From a virus (Duplodnaviria; Heunggongvirae; Uroviricota; Caudoviricetes): a DNA stretch of 34,588 bases. This document shows, piece after piece, positions 5,532 to 34,588 of this stretch (the stretch's first letter is position 1; every line of letters begins with the position of its first letter). A program made the position numbers and the translations under genes. The notes under the pieces were generated by a model, which did no database searches, was not told the origin of the DNA, and saw nothing but the letters and a program-made list of their open reading frames with translations. The DNA lies in the IMG/VR virus record IMGVR_UViG_2778261256_000005, positions 1-34,588 of that record; one strand, given 5' to 3'.

Positions 5532-5700
5532 ATTCTGTCAGTTGTGAAACTGAAGCGATTTAGTCGCTATCGATCTCATCAAATATGGCTCGCTTTGAGA
5601 TATTCCTCAAGTAAAAAAACATCTCTTCCTGCGATTTCTCACAAAAAAGATTCGTTGACAAAAAGTGACAAAATTATGAGATTTTCATCACACATTTTGA

Positions 5701-6096
<396 letters not shown>

Positions 6097-6118
6097 TCCT
6101 TTATATTGAGTGTATCGC

Positions 6119-6146
6119 CAACGCGCCTTCGGGCGCGTTTTATTTA
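6119..6146 (+). terminator. Rho-independent terminator after raiA
   Basis: Stem acgcgcc (6121-6127) / ggcgcgt (6132-6138), loop ttcg, followed by tttattt. Confidence 0.7.
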
Positions 6147-6239
6147 CCTGTAGCACATTGAAATAAAAGGATTTATCTCAACAAACGTCCACATAGTGAC
6201 CACATCGACAATACAAACCCCGTTTCGACGGGGTTTCTT

Positions 6240-7427
6240 ATGCGTGTCAATAAGTCCACAGAGCATTCCCGACATCCGCAAAAAATGTTAACATCCATAA
6301 AAACACCAAGCGTAATTATTATAATGAAATATATTTTTGAATACGGACTTTATCTCAGCATACTTATAGCGACAATATATGTCACTTCTAAGTTATTGGG
6401 TATTACACCTGCAAAACATAAATACGCCTCGCTTGATGGCTTACGTGGAATTTGTGCAGCAATGGTTGCTGTATTCCATCTTTACTGGAGAGCCGGAGGA
6501 GAATCAGATATATACTGGTCTCTTGAGTACATTACACTCAGCAATGTAAAACGCGCCATATATCTAACAGGAGAGTTATCTGTTGGGGTCTTTTTTATGC
6601 TGTCTGCTTTTTTATTTTTCAAAAAGGCACTAGCGGACTCCTTCGATGTAAAAAGCTTTGCAATTTCACGATTCATGCGAATTTACCCACCTGTAGTTGT
6701 TCTTTTATTTATAATATATATTGCAACATTTATCATGAATCCGGATAACCATACTCCAGTATCGCAATGGTTTATATCTTCATTACCATTTATATTCAAT
6801 CCGCCTGGCGCTAACATCAATGGTGTATCGCTCCAGATTGCCACATCTGGTGTGTTCTGGACGTTAGTCTGGGAATTACGCCTATACCTTGCAATTCCAT
6901 TTTTATATCTGATAATGAAAAACATCAAATATAAAGAAGCATTTGTTATTTTTTTAATGGGATGTGTTTTATTATTCAAGTATTTTATAAACAATGAACA
7001 ACACCTGAGTTATATAATGTATTTCCTTGCAGGATTTCTTGTCGCTACAATCAAGAGCAACAAGCGCCCATCAGATATAATCTGCGCTTTATTATTATTC
7101 GCAGCCATATATTTTACTCGACATGCTTACAACACTACAACTCCGCTTTATATGTTTATTGTTTTCTACACAATAAAGTGCGGATGTGATTACTTTGGCT
7201 TACTTACATCCCTGCCTGTAACTATGCTGGGAACCTGCAGTTTCTCCCTTTATTTAGTTCATGGGATAACTCAAACAGTATCTAAACATTATTTATATAG
7301 TGCAGGAAACTATGTTTGGCAGATTTGTGCAATTATTGCGGCAGGTATCATTGCGCCGGTTATGTACAAATATGTCGAAAGTCGCAGCATCATACATAAG
7401 CGTCCTCAACTTCAGATTGCAAAGTAG
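6240..7427 (+). CDS. Acyltransferase family 3 integral membrane protein (Oac/OafA-like, putative surface polysaccharide O-acetyltransferase)
   Basis: Strongly AT-rich ORF; multi-pass hydrophobic protein with LDGLRGICAAMVAVFHL, FFMLSAFL, RFMRIYPP and SFSLYLVH motifs typical of acyltransferase-3 family; start uncertain (ATG 6240, 6285 or 6324, none with a strong SD). Confidence 0.7.
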   Translation: MRVNKSTEHSRHPQKMLTSIKTPSVIIIMKYIFEYGLYLSILIATIYVTSKLLGITPAKHKYASLDGLRGICAAMVAVFHLYWRAGGESDIYWSLEYITLSNVKRAIYLTGELSVGVFFMLSAFLFFKKALADSFDVKSFAISRFMRIYPPVVVLLFIIYIATFIMNPDNHTPVSQWFISSLPFIFNPPGANINGVSLQIATSGVFWTLVWELRLYLAIPFLYLIMKNIKYKEAFVIFLMGCVLLFKYFINNEQHLSYIMYFLAGFLVATIKSNKRPSDIICALLLFAAIYFTRHAYNTTTPLYMFIVFYTIKCGCDYFGLLTSLPVTMLGTCSFSLYLVHGITQTVSKHYLYSAGNYVWQICAIIAAGIIAPVMYKYVESRSIIHKRPQLQIAK

Positions 7428-7434
7428 AACATTT

Positions 7435-7454
7435 GCGCCCCTGAACAGGGGCGC
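7435..7454. other. GC-rich stem-loop just after acyltransferase gene (terminator-like, no U-tract)
   Basis: gcgcccct (7435-7442) gaac aggggcgc (7447-7454), perfect 8-bp stem. Confidence 0.35.
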
Positions 7455-7519
7455 TATCCCACCACGCTGTTAAAATTTTGTTTCGTCTTACTTAGCATTT
7501 TTAAGTTGCCCATCGGAAA

Positions 7520-7790
7520 AACGTCACAACCATCACGCCCCACAAAAAAAACCATTAACCATCTGATTATCATGAATAAATGTTGTGATGGTAAAACCAT
7601 CACAAAACGTAACGTAAACCGTCACACCCTATAAATTCAGCGAGTTATAAAACAGAGTTGTGATGTTTTAAGGCCGTCACACTGTGATGCTCTTGTGATG
7701 CTCTTGTGATGGTTTTCAATATATGAATTTACTTATACATATCATATAGATAAATGATATTTTTTAAATCTGTGATGTTTGTGACGGTTT
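7520..7790. repeat. Cluster of iteron-like TGTGATG / CATCACA motifs incl. 9-bp inverted repeat and 11-bp tandem duplication, next to an AT-rich block
   Basis: GTGATG at 7585, 7660, 7684, 7695, 7706, 7772; CATCAC at 7531, 7598; inverted repeat ttgtgatgg-N5-ccatcacaa (7583-7605); tandem tgatgctcttg x2 (7686-7707); AT-rich stretch 7712-7770; no ORF >=60 aa in 7430-8440. Confidence 0.5.
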
Positions 7791-8420
7791 TCCGATGCTC
7801 CCCCTAAATTTTTGAAAAAATTAGAAGTGGTCAGAAATCACCCTGATTTGTTGGTGGTTTTGTATATATCTCTGTTAGTGATTTGAGCATTGGTGCAGTA
7901 CGTTAATGTAGGTATGGCTATAGTTCAGGCTGTGCAAAGTATTTCAGTTCCGCATCTCACGGTCATTCCGCGCCAGAACACATCAAATAAGGCCTTGTCA
8001 CTTTCTCCCGCTTACGTGATCCCGCTGCGGCCGTTACGTTAAAAGTCACGTAATCACTGTTAAACCCGCATGAAGTCCGGCACCGTCATTTTTCACCCAC
8101 GGCCGGTAATTGCACAAAAACTGTAATCCTTGAAATCTGTTTCACATATTTCAGTCGGTGAACTACCGCCAAAGCCCCAGCGCTGGCGCAGTCTGGCGAT
8201 GTGTTTTGTACCCCCAGAAAAACTGAAATCATTCTCAACACGAAAACCGCAGGCGGGTGCGGTGTAGCGCCGTTTTCGTCACTTCCGCCGTTATTTCGTC
8301 GTGGCAGGCTGCATCAGCGCCTTGCTGTGCTTTTAAAGCTAATTAAGTTGGGATTGGAGCGGGTGTAGATACTGTCGGCGCTCAGAATGCGTCTGGTGAG
8401 GTCTGGTGGGTGCGATAAAG

Positions 8421-8444
8421 CCCGCATGACGCGGGCTGGTTGAG
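8421..8444 (-). terminator. Putative terminator of the phage late (tail) operon
   Basis: Perfect 7-bp stem agcccgc/gcgggct (8421-8438) directly after stop of the 567-aa gene, followed on minus strand by ttat. Confidence 0.4.
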
Positions 8445-8447
8445 AAA

Positions 8448-10151
8448 TCAGGCGATAATGTTCTGGTACTTGCTCCGGGTCTGCCCGGCTTTCGTCGCCG
8501 TCTGTGTAAACTCGGCGGCATTGGTTGGAGTCCCAACGGTGGGGTGTGAATGGTTCGCGCATTGCTGCGCCAGTTCTGCCAGTAAATCAATGGTGTCCAG
8601 CATCATGGTCAGGGCGTTGATACTCTCGCTGCCAATATGGACTGTTGCCCCCATGACCTGCTGACCGCCAGCGGCCACTGATTTACGCAGTGCGGCAATC
8701 TTCTCTGTCAGGCTTTCGCCAACCTCCACGGCTACAGCACCGCCCACTTTAGTGGACTGCTGTCCTGCTATGTCCGTTTCTTCGTTTCCTTCAATACTGG
8801 CCAGCCTGTTACCTTTCACCGCCTGGCTATAATCACCGGCGCTTACCTGCTGGATGGCTCCGGCCAGCAGTGTGGTGGTTCCCAGTACCGTGGTTTTGTC
8901 CGTGGCTTTCACCGTGGTTTCACGGCTGACCAGTTCGCGCTGCTCCGTATCGGCTTTTACGGTTCGCGCCATCGATGTTTCACTGATGGTTTGATCGGTC
9001 TGCCTTACCCAGTCTCCAGCCTGAGTCACCCTCTGGGATACTTCTTCCCTCTGCTGCTGCAATTGCTCACCGGGTTTAACGTCCGGCAGGCTGGTACCAT
9101 CCGGCAGCGTCTGCCTGATAAAGGGTTTATCCGGTCTGCCTCCCGTGAATGCAACCTCAACCAGCGTCCCTTCTGGCGGAAACTGAAACATACCTGAATC
9201 ATTCCCGGCCATTGGCACCGGCAGCGGCACCGCTGAGTAAACAGGCGTCTGATTGTCCGGGTTTCCGTCTGCGTCAAGCAGCTGAACGTCCACGGCATAA
9301 CGTGGCCGGAATGGATCGGCAAAATTACCACTTTTCACGGGTTCAGTATGTGCCACCACTCTGGCCATCTTTGGCAGATGAAGCCCGGAAGCCAGTTCCG
9401 GATAATGGCTCTCAATCTGTCGTTGTGTCGGTGTTTTCTGAAGGGGGCTGCCTGTGACGCGGTTCCGGGGTGTCCAGGTGATAGTCATCGTGTCATTTGT
9501 AAGATGGACTTTGGTGACCCGTTCACCGTTAAGCTCAACGCCGGGTCGTATCGTCTGGATCACCGGTAACGTTATGGTATTCCCGCCAGCAGCCCCCTGG
9601 CTGAACTCTGCCGGCACTTCGACCGGACGACCGGTAAACAGTGACTTTTCAGCACCGCCGACGTAAAGCGAACCATCAGGCAACTGGTACCAGATGTAAT
9701 CCTGGATACTGAATGCCCTGCCCAGGTTGTTCAGCAACTGATAGCCGGTACCGTTATGGGTGAAATGGGGGATCGGAGTATCGCTGTAAGACACATCGGG
9801 TACACTGACACCGATCCCGCTGTTTTCCGTCAGCCAGCCGGCTACATCCCTTAATGTCGGGTGCTGAAATGAACATGGCCACATCCTTTCAAAAACACCG
9901 GCCAGCTCACGAATGAACAGACGCTGATAACCGTTTTCAGCTGGTTGTGAACGTTCAACATAACCGGTAAACCAGCGCAAAAGCAGGTCGGTATATCCCA
10001 CATCCAGCCGCACCAGTTTCCCGGTATAATCAGTGGTTGTCTCTGCGGTAATAAATCCCCGACCGCAACTGTTAAGCTCCAGTACCAGGCTGGCATCAGC
10101 CAGATGCACTTCATCCGTTGAAAGGTAAAGACGTTTAACTGGTTTCATCAT
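8448..10151 (-). CDS. Phage tail/baseplate protein, putative hub-spike (gpD/gpV- or VgrG-like), 567 aa
   Basis: Last gene of translationally coupled tail operon (start overlaps upstream stop, TAATG); C-terminal half is T/V/A/G-rich like spike beta-structure; family assignment is by position and composition only. Confidence 0.4.
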   Translation of the reverse strand: MMKPVKRLYLSTDEVHLADASLVLELNSCGRGFITAETTTDYTGKLVRLDVGYTDLLLRWFTGYVERSQPAENGYQRLFIRELAGVFERMWPCSFQHPTLRDVAGWLTENSGIGVSVPDVSYSDTPIPHFTHNGTGYQLLNNLGRAFSIQDYIWYQLPDGSLYVGGAEKSLFTGRPVEVPAEFSQGAAGGNTITLPVIQTIRPGVELNGERVTKVHLTNDTMTITWTPRNRVTGSPLQKTPTQRQIESHYPELASGLHLPKMARVVAHTEPVKSGNFADPFRPRYAVDVQLLDADGNPDNQTPVYSAVPLPVPMAGNDSGMFQFPPEGTLVEVAFTGGRPDKPFIRQTLPDGTSLPDVKPGEQLQQQREEVSQRVTQAGDWVRQTDQTISETSMARTVKADTEQRELVSRETTVKATDKTTVLGTTTLLAGAIQQVSAGDYSQAVKGNRLASIEGNEETDIAGQQSTKVGGAVAVEVGESLTEKIAALRKSVAAGGQQVMGATVHIGSESINALTMMLDTIDLLAELAQQCANHSHPTVGTPTNAAEFTQTATKAGQTRSKYQNIIA

Positions 10152-28712: not shown

Positions 28713-29432
28713 ATGTTAATAGTCTCAGTTCTTAAATGTAGTAAAGAGTTTACCCCTAAACACGCCCAATGGCTTCATCGTCAGTTCAAAGATATTCCAT
28801 CTATATGTTTAACCGATGCAGATAATATTCCTGGAGTTAACACAACCCCTTTGCTTTATAACTGGCCGGGATGGTGGTCTAAAATTGAACTATTTAATCC
28901 TAATCACCCAGTCCTTGGAGACCAAGATTTACTCTATTTTGACGTAGATGTTGTGGTCACGGGAGATATTCATATTTTCGAAGGTGCGAAGAAATTTACA
29001 ATGCTTCGGGAGTTTAACCATGCCTCAAGAGTAAACTCATCAATAATGATGATTCCGGCGTCGATTAAAAAGACGATTTGGGAACAATTCATTATTGATC
29101 CTGAGAAAATTATGCGCAATTGTCAGACTGAAGACAAATGGGGTGATCAGGGATTTCTCGGTAGCATCATAAAACCAGCCCTATGGCAGGATATCATTCC
29201 TGGCTCAATTGTTAGTTATAAATGTGACATCGCCACCCCCTCGATGATTGGCTTCAATGCAAATTTAGCCTCTGAGGCTGCGACAGGGAAAGTCCCTGAT
29301 AATGTGGCGGTTGTTTGCTTTCATGGCAGTCCACGCCCCTGGCGTACTGGTTTTGATTGGGTTCCTTCGTTTTCCCTGCGGGATACTCTGTACGGTAAAT
29401 TAAAGAACTTTAAAATAAGAATGAAGCAATAA
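28713..29432 (+). CDS. GT8-family (GT-A fold, retaining) glycosyltransferase-like protein, 239 aa
   Basis: AT-rich ORF with strong SD (GGGAGG); motifs LLYFDVDVVV (DxD), WGDQGFL and VVCFHGSPRPW align with LgtC/WaaJ-type GT8 motifs (YLDIDVLV, QDQDILN, HYCGPAKPW); no signal peptide or TMD. Confidence 0.6.
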   Translation: MLIVSVLKCSKEFTPKHAQWLHRQFKDIPSICLTDADNIPGVNTTPLLYNWPGWWSKIELFNPNHPVLGDQDLLYFDVDVVVTGDIHIFEGAKKFTMLREFNHASRVNSSIMMIPASIKKTIWEQFIIDPEKIMRNCQTEDKWGDQGFLGSIIKPALWQDIIPGSIVSYKCDIATPSMIGFNANLASEAATGKVPDNVAVVCFHGSPRPWRTGFDWVPSFSLRDTLYGKLKNFKIRMKQ

Positions 29433-32158: not shown

Positions 32159-32417
32159 AAATAATCCAGATGTGAATAATGGGTAAAAGGCAAAAACTAT
32201 ATTCTGTACTGCTTGTTATATCGCTCATGTGTCATTAGTTCCCAGCTTCTGCCCTTATCCTTACTCAGTAATCGTCAGCGATAAGAAACATGAACAGAGA
32301 AATAATGTTTTGGCTTAATAACCTGATATACCTTTTTGCCGTTGTAATATTCTGTCAGCACTGAAAATGCCTTGTGAATGACACTTTCACTTGCATGAGA
32401 GGTCACTGTAAGCATCG

Positions 32418-32987
32418 TTATTTCACACTGGCTATTTTTACAAGATACATCCAGACATAAGAAACAACTTTAGCCTGATGAATGGCATCATATAAAGCGT
32501 GATGTTTAACACCATCAAACTTAATAATATTACGAACATTCAGCCCAAGTGTTTTTGACAGTTCAACAACCGTTCTTACATCACGGTCATTCCAGTAGTA
32601 CCAAAGTGGATCGGCAAACCCGCATTTCTCTGATGCATTACGTAAAATAACATTGTCGAACGCTGCACTATTCCCCCATACCTGTACTTTAGATGGGTCA
32701 GAATGCTCAGTAATAAAAGCTTCCAGATTAGCTAACGTCAGAGGCAAGTCCAGACAATCGTCATTAAGCAGCTCGCTACGCGCTTCGGCATCCTGACGCA
32801 TCCACCATAATACGGTTTCTGACCCCATAGTGAGACCGTGGCCTACACAGCTGCCCAGGCTGACACGTTGATAAAACTGTTCACCCATTTCGCCAGTTTC
32901 AGGGTCAAAGAATACAGCACCGATAGAAGCAATCGCAGAAGTCGGTTTATTATCCATTGTTTCAAGATCAATCATTAAATGTTTCAT
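32418..32987 (-). CDS. DnaQ-like 3-prime-5-prime exonuclease (DEDDh family)
   Basis: 189 aa, N-terminal MIDLETM Exo I motif, downstream H..D motif; AAGGA SD. Confidence 0.65.
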   Translation of the reverse strand: MKHLMIDLETMDNKPTSAIASIGAVFFDPETGEMGEQFYQRVSLGSCVGHGLTMGSETVLWWMRQDAEARSELLNDDCLDLPLTLANLEAFITEHSDPSKVQVWGNSAAFDNVILRNASEKCGFADPLWYYWNDRDVRTVVELSKTLGLNVRNIIKFDGVKHHALYDAIHQAKVVSYVWMYLVKIASVK

Positions 32988-34114: not shown

Positions 34115-34511
34115 ATGTCGATTAAGAAGCTTGATGATGGTCGTTTTGAAGTGGACGTTAGACCGCGCGGAACCTCAGGAAGAAGGATTCGACGCAAATT
34201 TGACAGAAAGGCGGAAGCACAGGCATACGAGCGGTATGTACTGACAAACTTTCACGATAAAGAATGGCAGGATAAACCCGCAGACAGGAGGCTTGTATCC
34301 GAGTTAATTTCTTTATGGTGGAGCTACCATGGAAAGAATCACAACTATGGTGACTCATATAAAAAGCGTTTGGAAAAAATCAACCGAGAAATGGCGGAAC
34401 CCAGAGTGTACGAGCTTACCCGCAACTTTCTGATGAAATATCGTGCAGAACGACTTCATAGTGGAGTATCTGCTGGCACGGTAAACAGGGATTTCTGTTC
34501 CATGTCCAGCA
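34115..34511 (+). pseudogene. P2-like tyrosine integrase, N-terminal ~132 codons only, interrupted by IS10
   Basis: MSIKKLDDGRFEVDVRPRGTSGRRIRRKFDRK matches remembered P2 Int N-terminus (MAIKKLDDGRYEVDIRP...RIRRKFDKK); GGAGGG SD; reading frame runs into IS10 end at 34512 and stops at 34549; catalytic domain absent from window. Confidence 0.8.
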
Positions 34512-34588
34512 CTGATGAATCCCCTAATGATTTTGGTAAAAATCATTAAGTTAAGGTGGATACACATCTTGTCATATGATCAAATGGT
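34512..34588 (+). mobile_element. IS10 (Tn10-type) outside end, first 77 bp (element continues beyond window)
   Basis: ctgatgaatcccctaatgattttggtaaaaatcattaagttaaggtggatacacatcttgtcatatgatcaaatggt matches the remembered IS10 outside terminus containing the pIN/pOUT region. Confidence 0.8.

Follow-up and report, generated by a model that had tools for sequence, protein, structure and literature searches.

The window, a stretch of 34,588 nucleotides deposited as IMG/VR virus record IMGVR_UViG_2778261256_000005, contains an acyltransferase family 3 (AT3) gene that belongs to an integrated temperate phage of the P2 family (Peduoviridae), which is ESSI-2-like and has Escherichia phage ESSI2_ev239 (ev239) as a near relative. 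The encoded enzyme joins a well-known kind, the phage-borne AT3 acetylases of surface glycans, which have been known since Sf6 Oac. RefSeq and the ev239 record already label the gene an acyltransferase or O-acetyltransferase, and no publication that deals with it or with acetyltransferases of ESSI-2-like phages turned up in a literature search. The protein is probably a membrane O-acyltransferase of lysogenic conversion that is carried as phage cargo, and its likeliest acceptor would be an undecaprenyl-linked O-antigen unit or another LPS sugar.

Gene structure and local sequence

The genes at the window start (clpB, yfiH, rluD, bamD and raiA, the last at 5755..6096) are all E. coli genes. A P2-family prophage is located downstream of raiA and continues past the window end. 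The acyltransferase open reading frame after the raiA terminator extends over 6240..7427 on the + strand and encodes 395 aa from an in-frame upstream ATG at 6240. The ATG at 6324 is the start kept among homologs and the PGAP choice in most genomes, and it yields a protein of 367 aa (MKYIFEYG...). An earlier sequence-only reading of this DNA had described the region after the raiA terminator as very AT-rich. The coding sequence indeed has a GC content of 0.364 (GC3 0.33), compared with 0.46 for raiA, 0.51 for bamD and 0.55 for the adjacent phage baseplate gene, that is, 36% against 46-55% in its neighbours. The low-GC block comprises approximately 6142-7913, and GC content steps from 35% to 51.5% at 7914. 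Position 7454, where the sequence-only reading had placed the end of the acyltransferase region, is the 3' end of a GC-rich hairpin (Table 1); this hairpin is absent from the terminator-like sites scored in the window.

Sequence reading and a promoter scan revealed no confident promoter or Shine-Dalgarno sequence upstream of the ATG at 6324. The site counts of the scan equalled the shuffled expectation, and none of the sites was upstream of the acyltransferase gene. Expression in the lysogen may be aided by read-through from raiA. No structured RNA in 5600-8600 was matched in Rfam at E<=1.

Table 1. Coordinates of the acyltransferase gene and of the elements around it in the window.
Feature	Position	Strand	Remarks
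attL core, the raiA intrinsic terminator (AACGCGCCTTCGGGCGCGTTTT)	6120..6141	+	left boundary of the integrated prophage
attP-arm-derived segment (putative, by resemblance)	6142..6239	+	GTCCACA/GACCACA repeats at 6188-6205, hairpin at 6215-6236
AT3-only acyltransferase CDS	6324..7427	+	367 aa; 395 aa if the ATG at 6240 is used
GC-rich hairpin GCGCCCCTGAACAGGGGCGC	7435..7454	+	8 nt past the stop codon; terminator-like, without a T tract
Non-coding iteron block in the low-GC module	7500..7808		11 TGTGAYG copies in both orientations
Right edge of the low-GC module, deletion endpoint	7911..7914		left end common to two independent prophage deletions
Conserved 33-nt element GCAGGCGGGTGCGGTGTAGCGCCGTTT, probable cos	8248..8280		97% identity to the Citrobacter prophage, which has otherwise diverged
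Baseplate protein, 567 aa, first late/tail gene	8448..10151	-	phrog_2258, E=4e-275; convergent with the acyltransferase gene

The acyltransferase gene is part of the prophage

Whether the gene belongs to the prophage or to a separate insertion had been left open by the sequence-only reading, and mapping of the attachment site settles this question in favour of the prophage. Of 5426 complete E. coli genomes, 5404 show chromosome similarity to the window that breaks off at the final base of the raiA terminator (6141). A second copy of AACGCGCCTTCGGGCGCGTTTT with one mismatch is located at the far prophage end, between the phage integrase gene and pheL. The empty site of an O157:H7 genome consists of the left half of the raiA-side copy and the right half of the pheL-side copy. 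No third copy of the att core was found in the window between the acyltransferase gene and the phage genes.

The DNA that separates raiA from the gene is also related to phage sequences. Positions 6143-6260 are 75-81% similar to DNA adjoining ogrK in P2-like prophages, and partial matches to this interval occur in up to ~1400 E. coli genomes, with two under ogrK among the matches listed. The interval thus resembles a P2-type attP arm and is read as such. An 80%-identical gene fills the same slot in a prophage of Citrobacter amalonaticus whose tail module is the same, and TGTCCACA repeats and a hairpin occupy the equivalent place before this homologous gene. The Citrobacter prophage adjoins a P-type ATPase gene, not raiA. 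Among the 5426 complete E. coli genomes, the acyltransferase gene was found in 22, and the prophage was present in all 22.

The gene is therefore a prophage gene: copies of the att core enclose it, the attP arm precedes it, ev239 and the Citrobacter prophage at another site carry it, and it co-occurs with the prophage in 22/22 genomes. A separate insertion beside the prophage would account for the sharp low-GC block at 6142-7913, which is unlike the phage backbone, and for the flanking non-coding DNA that is missing from most ESSI-2-like relatives. This explanation is already contradicted, however, and we give it hardly any credence. The two att core copies surround the gene with no third copy to set the phage apart, the attP-arm homology sits between raiA and the gene, and the gene is present both in the isolated phage ev239 and at a different chromosomal site in Citrobacter. 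Moreover, the comparison with prophage-free genomes, which the sequence-only reading had recommended, revealed the gene at raiA without the prophage in 0/5426 genomes. An islet between raiA and the prophage is rejected on the att mapping, the attP-arm homology, ev239 and the location of the Citrobacter prophage elsewhere. The prophage boundary at raiA is now fixed.

Protein family, conserved residues and fold

The protein matches the Pfam family PF01757 (Acyl_transf_3) with E=5.9e-29 and 101.6 bits against a cutoff of 31, the alignment covering positions 2-322 of the 326 in the profile. A second match, with E=1e-40, is to phrog_3333 'O-acetyltransferase'. Three sequence motifs had led to the proposal of acyltransferase family 3, and all three are present in the protein: SLDGLRG...H at aa 36-52, VFFMLSAFLF at aa 89-98 and RFMRIYPP at aa 116-123. 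The near-full profile match, the three motifs and the low GC content together confirm that the earlier observation was correct.

The defining motifs of the AT3 family are R-X10-H, which is absolutely conserved in the first core transmembrane (TM) helix, and RXXR, which is located at the cytoplasmic face of the third core TM helix (PMC9833829); both motifs are needed in OafB (PMC9833829). R-X10-H corresponds to R41/H52, which lie on the helix formed by residues 35-57 in the AF2 model, the first core TM helix. RXXR corresponds to R116-F-M-R119 at the start of the helix formed by residues 109-138. In an alignment of 40 homologs (20-81% identity), R41, H52, R116, R119, W179, E184, S308 and Y310 are invariant.

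The AF2 model (pLDDT 92.8) comprises 11 long helices, in line with the multi-pass membrane protein anticipated from the sequence. Ten of these helices form the core with the transmembrane acyltransferase fold, and one additional helix (residues 2-25) is located at the N-terminus. The helices of the model, combined with alternating K/R-rich loops, predict 11 TM helices in an N-out, C-in topology. A Kyte-Doolittle scan at a threshold of 1.5 missed helices, and the AF2 model was used in its place. In the fused acetyltransferases OafA, OafB and OatA, a periplasmic SGNH domain at the C-terminus follows an 11th helix. The window protein bears no SGNH domain: its 367 aa contain PF01757 alone and the model stops after the last TM helix. 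No NCBIfam equivalog scored above its cutoff, the sole match being a partial one to SucT (15 bits against a cutoff of 1275). The PADLOC models of anti-phage defence gave no family at E<=0.01.

Comparison with characterized acyltransferases

The nearest characterized relative found was OacB of the Shigella flexneri phage Sf101 (27% identity over 307 aa, E=1e-20), which is responsible for 3/4-O-acetylation of rhamnose III of the O-antigen. Mutagenesis of OacB has identified R47, H58, W71, F98, R116, R119 and S146 as essential residues. Six of these seven are identical in the window protein, in which they correspond to R41, H52, W65, F98, R116 and R119, respectively. In contrast, S146 is not conserved and aligns with P145. 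Both proteins are AT3-only, and the reported OacB topology likewise comprises an additional N-terminal helix and 11 TM helices with the N-terminus out and the C-terminus in. The gene order is also alike. In Sf101, oacB is located between int/attP and a convergent tail gene, giving an int, oacB, tail-protein layout, and the gene of the window occupies a temperate phage genome by attP/int and the tail genes. The two phages themselves are different, as Sf101 is a P22-like Lederbergvirus and the window phage is a P2-family myovirus. The phrog_3333 match, the 27% identity to OacB, the equal gene position and the six shared essential residues substantiate the analogy with phage O-antigen acetylases on which the sequence-only reading had drawn. 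The O-antigens of the hosts do not have the Shigella rhamnose backbone; hence, the acceptor must differ from that of OacB.

Sf6 Oac and the AT3-SGNH proteins OafA and OafB of Salmonella share PF01757, R-X10-H, RXXR and the proposed transmembrane transfer of acetyl from acetyl-CoA with the window protein. In the window protein, the SGNH domain is missing and the N-terminal helix is additional to the 10-helix core. Sf6 Oac itself gave no match at E<=1e-3 in a tblastn search against the phage collection. The best Foldseek matches of the model were HGSNAT and GWT1, two solved eukaryotic transmembrane acyl-CoA acyltransferases. Sequence identity to these proteins is 12-14%, the Foldseek E is only 0.05-0.15, and both have other substrates and domain additions.

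By analogy with the AT3 model of OafB and with HGSNAT and GWT1, acetyl-CoA would enter a cavity that opens to the cytoplasm and is lined with R41, R116 and R119. Its acetyl group would then pass through the membrane, with H52 taking part, and would be placed on a sugar hydroxyl at the periplasmic face, the likeliest recipient being an O-antigen unit linked to undecaprenyl or some other sugar of the LPS.

A variable slot between attP and cos

The closest phage homolog is gp35 of ESSI2_ev239 (NC_049392, Peduoviridae, Evevirus), which is annotated 'O-acetyltransferase' and has 96.5% aa identity to the window protein. According to its description, this coliphage was isolated from infant faeces. 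Its acyltransferase gene is placed between the integrase gene and the end of the record, which wraps to the baseplate gene. The order of the slot is accordingly the same in both phages: int, attP, acyltransferase, non-coding iteron region, cos and baseplate gene. Both phages also have a toprim primase replication module, and their backbones are ~92% identical; the toprim protein of the window phage has a length of 885 aa. ev239 is represented by a free phage genome, whereas the window phage is a prophage in the raiA terminator, with a presumed IS10-type end breaking its int.

The slot between attP and cos is variable in the ESSI-2-like family. It contains the AT3 gene in the window, ev239 and the Citrobacter prophage, a gene annotated 'serine acetyltransferase' (205-208 aa) in ev129 and ev015, and hypothetical genes in vB_YenM_324; in ESSI-2, the slot contains no annotated gene. 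P2 phages are known for cargo ('moron') slots, such as Z/fun, tin and old. The acyltransferase gene would be a cargo gene of this kind, located just inside the attP arm, in the interval that separates the att site and integrase from cos and the tail genes. Features shared with P2-like cargo slots are the low GC content, an orientation independent of the late operon and a variable site in a conserved P2-family genome. The position between attP and cos, however, differs from that of these slots.

The non-coding DNA downstream of the gene (7456-8447) contains 11 of the 18 TGTGAYG sites of the window within 265 bp. This iteron block has an AT-rich centre, and a 37-nt inverted repeat (7500-7536 / 7772-7808) encloses the TGTGAYG sites. 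The copy number of the 11-nt iteron unit TGTGATGCTCT differs among strains, and other repeats (TTTGCAAAA) are found at the position of the block in the Citrobacter phage. The block is present in both toprim-primase phages (window and ev239) and absent from the gpA-type phages ev129, ev015 and ev040. The block is suspected to be a replication origin.

The GC step that closes the low-GC module on the right is also the precise starting point of two independent deletions, which show microhomology of 2-4 nt. A tRNA-like sequence at this breakpoint was considered and rejected, as ARAGORN detected no tRNA in the whole window. The proposal that the ev239 record ends at the 7914 hotspot was also discarded. 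The ends of that record map near 8256-8260 and coincide with the conserved 33-nt element, which is probably the cos site.

Homologs, selection and retention

Prophages form the context of six of eight homologs, with at least five architectures. A canonical P2-like prophage has a homolog with 63% identity between its sheath and tail-fibre-assembly genes, and two Enterobacter phage types carry homologs with 52% identity that are convergent with tailspike genes. A Klebsiella homolog (35% identity) adjoins the J gene and the gene for a 929-aa fibre, and a Kosakonia homolog (47% identity) lies in a lambdoid early region. The remaining two, from Kosakonia (70%) and Salmonella (50%), have no nearby phage genes. 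This AT3 clade travels with several phage types and adjoins receptor-binding genes.

The acyltransferase is under purifying selection. The dN/dS ratio amounts to 0.20 in the comparison with ev239 and to 0.05 in that with the Citrobacter gene; selection was gauged by these two comparisons, since the 22 E. coli copies diverge too little to show selection within E. coli. The open reading frame is intact in all 22 E. coli genomes, ev239 and Citrobacter. Large internal deletions with loss of tail or head genes were observed in five of the 22 prophages, in three independent patterns, and the acyltransferase gene is annotated as intact in all five.

A decaying or silent passenger with no present function in these hosts would be consistent with the failure of sequence reading and scan to find a convincing promoter or ribosome-binding site, with the presumed IS10-type end inside int of the window prophage and the large deletions in 5/22 relatives, and with the variable O types of the hosts. 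We nevertheless regard this as quite improbable, given that the frame is unbroken in the 22 genomes, ev239 and Citrobacter, that dN/dS is as low as 0.05-0.2, that the catalytic residues are all conserved and that the gene is kept where adjacent tail genes are deleted.

Acceptor and predicted effect in the lysogen

The O-antigen clusters of the carriers give indirect and mixed evidence on the acceptor. Among three carrier strains whose prophages share 99.4% identity or more, the O-antigen cluster differs from strain to strain (O41-like, O5 and O81), and the hosts thus comprise at least three cluster types. A link to a single serogroup was considered and rejected: no more than four genomes have the O cluster of strain 2018-18.25PC, one of them with the prophage, and two other carriers, strain 54 and HZ13, are O5 and O81, respectively. 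O-antigen acetylases are usually specific for sugar and linkage. The three host clusters fit poorly with this usual specificity, so that a glycan other than the O-antigen is possible. Alternatively, the phage may have been acquired once in a lineage whose O locus was swapped later.

The same enzyme, carried as the same cargo, could thus act on a serogroup-independent envelope glycan in place of the O-antigen repeat. Its acceptor might be the LPS core, a shared reducing-end GalNAc or GlcNAc, enterobacterial common antigen, peptidoglycan or osmoregulated periplasmic glucans. The unrelated O-antigen clusters of the three strains point in this direction, as do the GlcNAc-PP-Und 4-epimerase gene that adjoins galF in 3/3 strains and the receptor-binding equipment of the window phage, which has P2-type tail fibres and a fibre-assembly protein and is without a tailspike or depolymerase. 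AT3-only enzymes that act on non-O-antigen glycans, WecH and IcaC, also exist (PMC9833829). Several observations argue against such an acceptor. No curated AT3 family was matched in NCBIfam; among characterized proteins, the closest relative found, OacB, acts on the O-antigen; and the more distant homologs adjoin tailspikes, the usual targets of which are O-antigen or capsule. In addition, the flanks are 99.9% identical, and the hosts may be members of a single clonal complex that exchanged its O locus after acquiring the phage. On balance, a serogroup-independent acceptor is possible but not what we expect.

P2-type phages typically bind the LPS core. A bolder proposal, which we consider unlikely, is that acetylation of a core or shared reducing-end sugar would allow this P2-family phage to mask its own core-type receptor whatever the O type of the host. 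On this view, the attP-cos slot would be dedicated to the repeated capture of acetyltransferase genes, being occupied by the AT3 gene here and by the 'serine acetyltransferase' gene in ev129 and ev015.

PF01757 is functionally broad (PMC9833829), and a non-glycan substrate (a small molecule, an antibiotic or a lipid), like that of some AT3 proteins of antibiotic producers, would be compatible with this breadth. The repeated placement of the gene beside phage receptor-binding genes and the O-antigen acetylase as closest characterized relative make such a substrate very improbable.

On the favoured reading, in which an O-antigen unit on undecaprenyl or a different LPS sugar is acetylated, the lysogen would display a changed surface epitope and a changed phage receptor, resulting in lysogenic conversion and superinfection exclusion. 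If active, the enzyme would alter surface chemistry in mainly livestock- and wastewater-associated E. coli, and serotyping, phage susceptibility and vaccine or antibody recognition could be affected.

The suggestion that the element carries a second surface-glycan gene, of a GT8-like glycosyltransferase, finds support at the level of annotation: the open reading frame at 28713..29432 gave no Pfam match, and it matches phrog_1962 'glycosyltransferase' with E=6e-81. At the far end of the window, the integrase gene of the prophage breaks off at 34512, and the DNA after this position is taken to be an IS10-type end by its likeness to the IS10 terminal sequence.

Repeats downstream of the acyltransferase gene and a probable cos site

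The non-coding DNA that follows the PF01757 acyltransferase (AT3) gene contains an iteron block, which may be a replication origin. Eleven TGTGAYG sites are located in both orientations inside 265 bp, where ~0.1 is expected. The block also contains a 37-nt inverted repeat (7500-7536 and 7772-7808), and its centre is AT-rich. A unit of 11 nt, TGTGATGCTCT, is repeated in tandem, with two copies in the window and three in strain 54, another E. coli carrier of the gene and prophage. The block was observed in both phages with a toprim primase (the window's prophage and the isolated coliphage ev239) and is absent from the gpA-type relatives. In the Citrobacter relative, a prophage of the same family, TTTGCAAAA repeats occupy the equivalent position.

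The GC-rich 33-nt element beyond this block is the probable cos site. It is 97% conserved in the Citrobacter prophage, although the surrounding DNA is not alignable, and the point at which the ESSI2_ev239 record starts and ends coincides with it. If this element is cos, the acyltransferase gene lies close to the right end of the virion DNA.

Features of the prophage and its relatives (window coordinates unless a locus is named)
Feature	Location	Strand	Remarks
Iteron block	7500-7808		Non-coding, 3' of the AT3 gene; TGTGAYG sites and inverted repeat
33-nt element GCAGGCGGGTGCGGTGTAGCGCCGTTT	8248-8280		GC-rich; conserved in the Citrobacter prophage
239-aa ORF	28713-29432	+	In a second low-GC patch, between ogr and the primase gene
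Small ParE family toxin-like protein	L020 24290-24508 (equivalent to window ~32160-32420)		Strain PK5; PGAP annotation
Interrupted integrase ORF	34115-34588		Break at 34512
'Serine acetyltransferase' (annotation), 205-208 aa	L006 29934-30551; L018 9697-10323		ESSI2_ev129; ev015

Internal deletions and retained cargo

Among the 22 carrier genomes, five contain a prophage with multiple large internal deletions, by which tail or head genes have been lost. In these prophages, including those of strains PSJ-12, YPE10 and PK5 (L003, L004 and L020), the acyltransferase and putative glycosyltransferase genes persist together with int and the replication genes, as would be expected of a decaying prophage that has kept its cargo. 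The left endpoints of two independent deletions fall in the same 4 bp (7911-7914); one deletion extends to 21809 in PSJ-12 and 23CRST024 and the other to 14949 in YPE10, with microhomologies of GGTA and TA. This point coincides with a step in GC content from 35% to 51.5%. No tRNA was found there in a scan of the whole window, nor was an Rfam match; the breakpoint was also ruled out as the cos site, the candidate for which lies elsewhere.

The 239-aa ORF, probably the gene described as 'GT8-like' in the sequence-only reading, matches phrog_1962 ('glycosyltransferase', moron category; E=6e-81); Pfam and PADLOC searches of this ORF gave no match. In the PK5 prophage, the ParE family toxin-like gene sits between the primase and exonuclease genes.

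The att site and the attP-cos slot in relatives

The slot between attP and cos is occupied by the 'serine acetyltransferase' gene in ev129 and ev015, whereas the window's prophage carries the AT3 gene there. The slot may be a recurrent site for acetyltransferase cargo. In E. coli O158:H23, a different mosaic prophage remnant (L007) was observed beside raiA, in the raiA-terminator att site that the window's prophage also uses. The two elements have the initial ~34 nt of the arm in common. The remnant encodes TM2-domain, Hok/Gef, ogr-like, tail-fibre, Lom and partial J genes, with no acyltransferase gene.

The integrase of the window's prophage is interrupted by DNA reading CTGATGAATCCCCTAATGATTTTGGTAAAAATCATTAAG..., which we take to be an IS10-type terminal sequence. 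The gene is intact in the reference strain, which is otherwise 99.96% identical. Excision is probably not possible in the window's strain.
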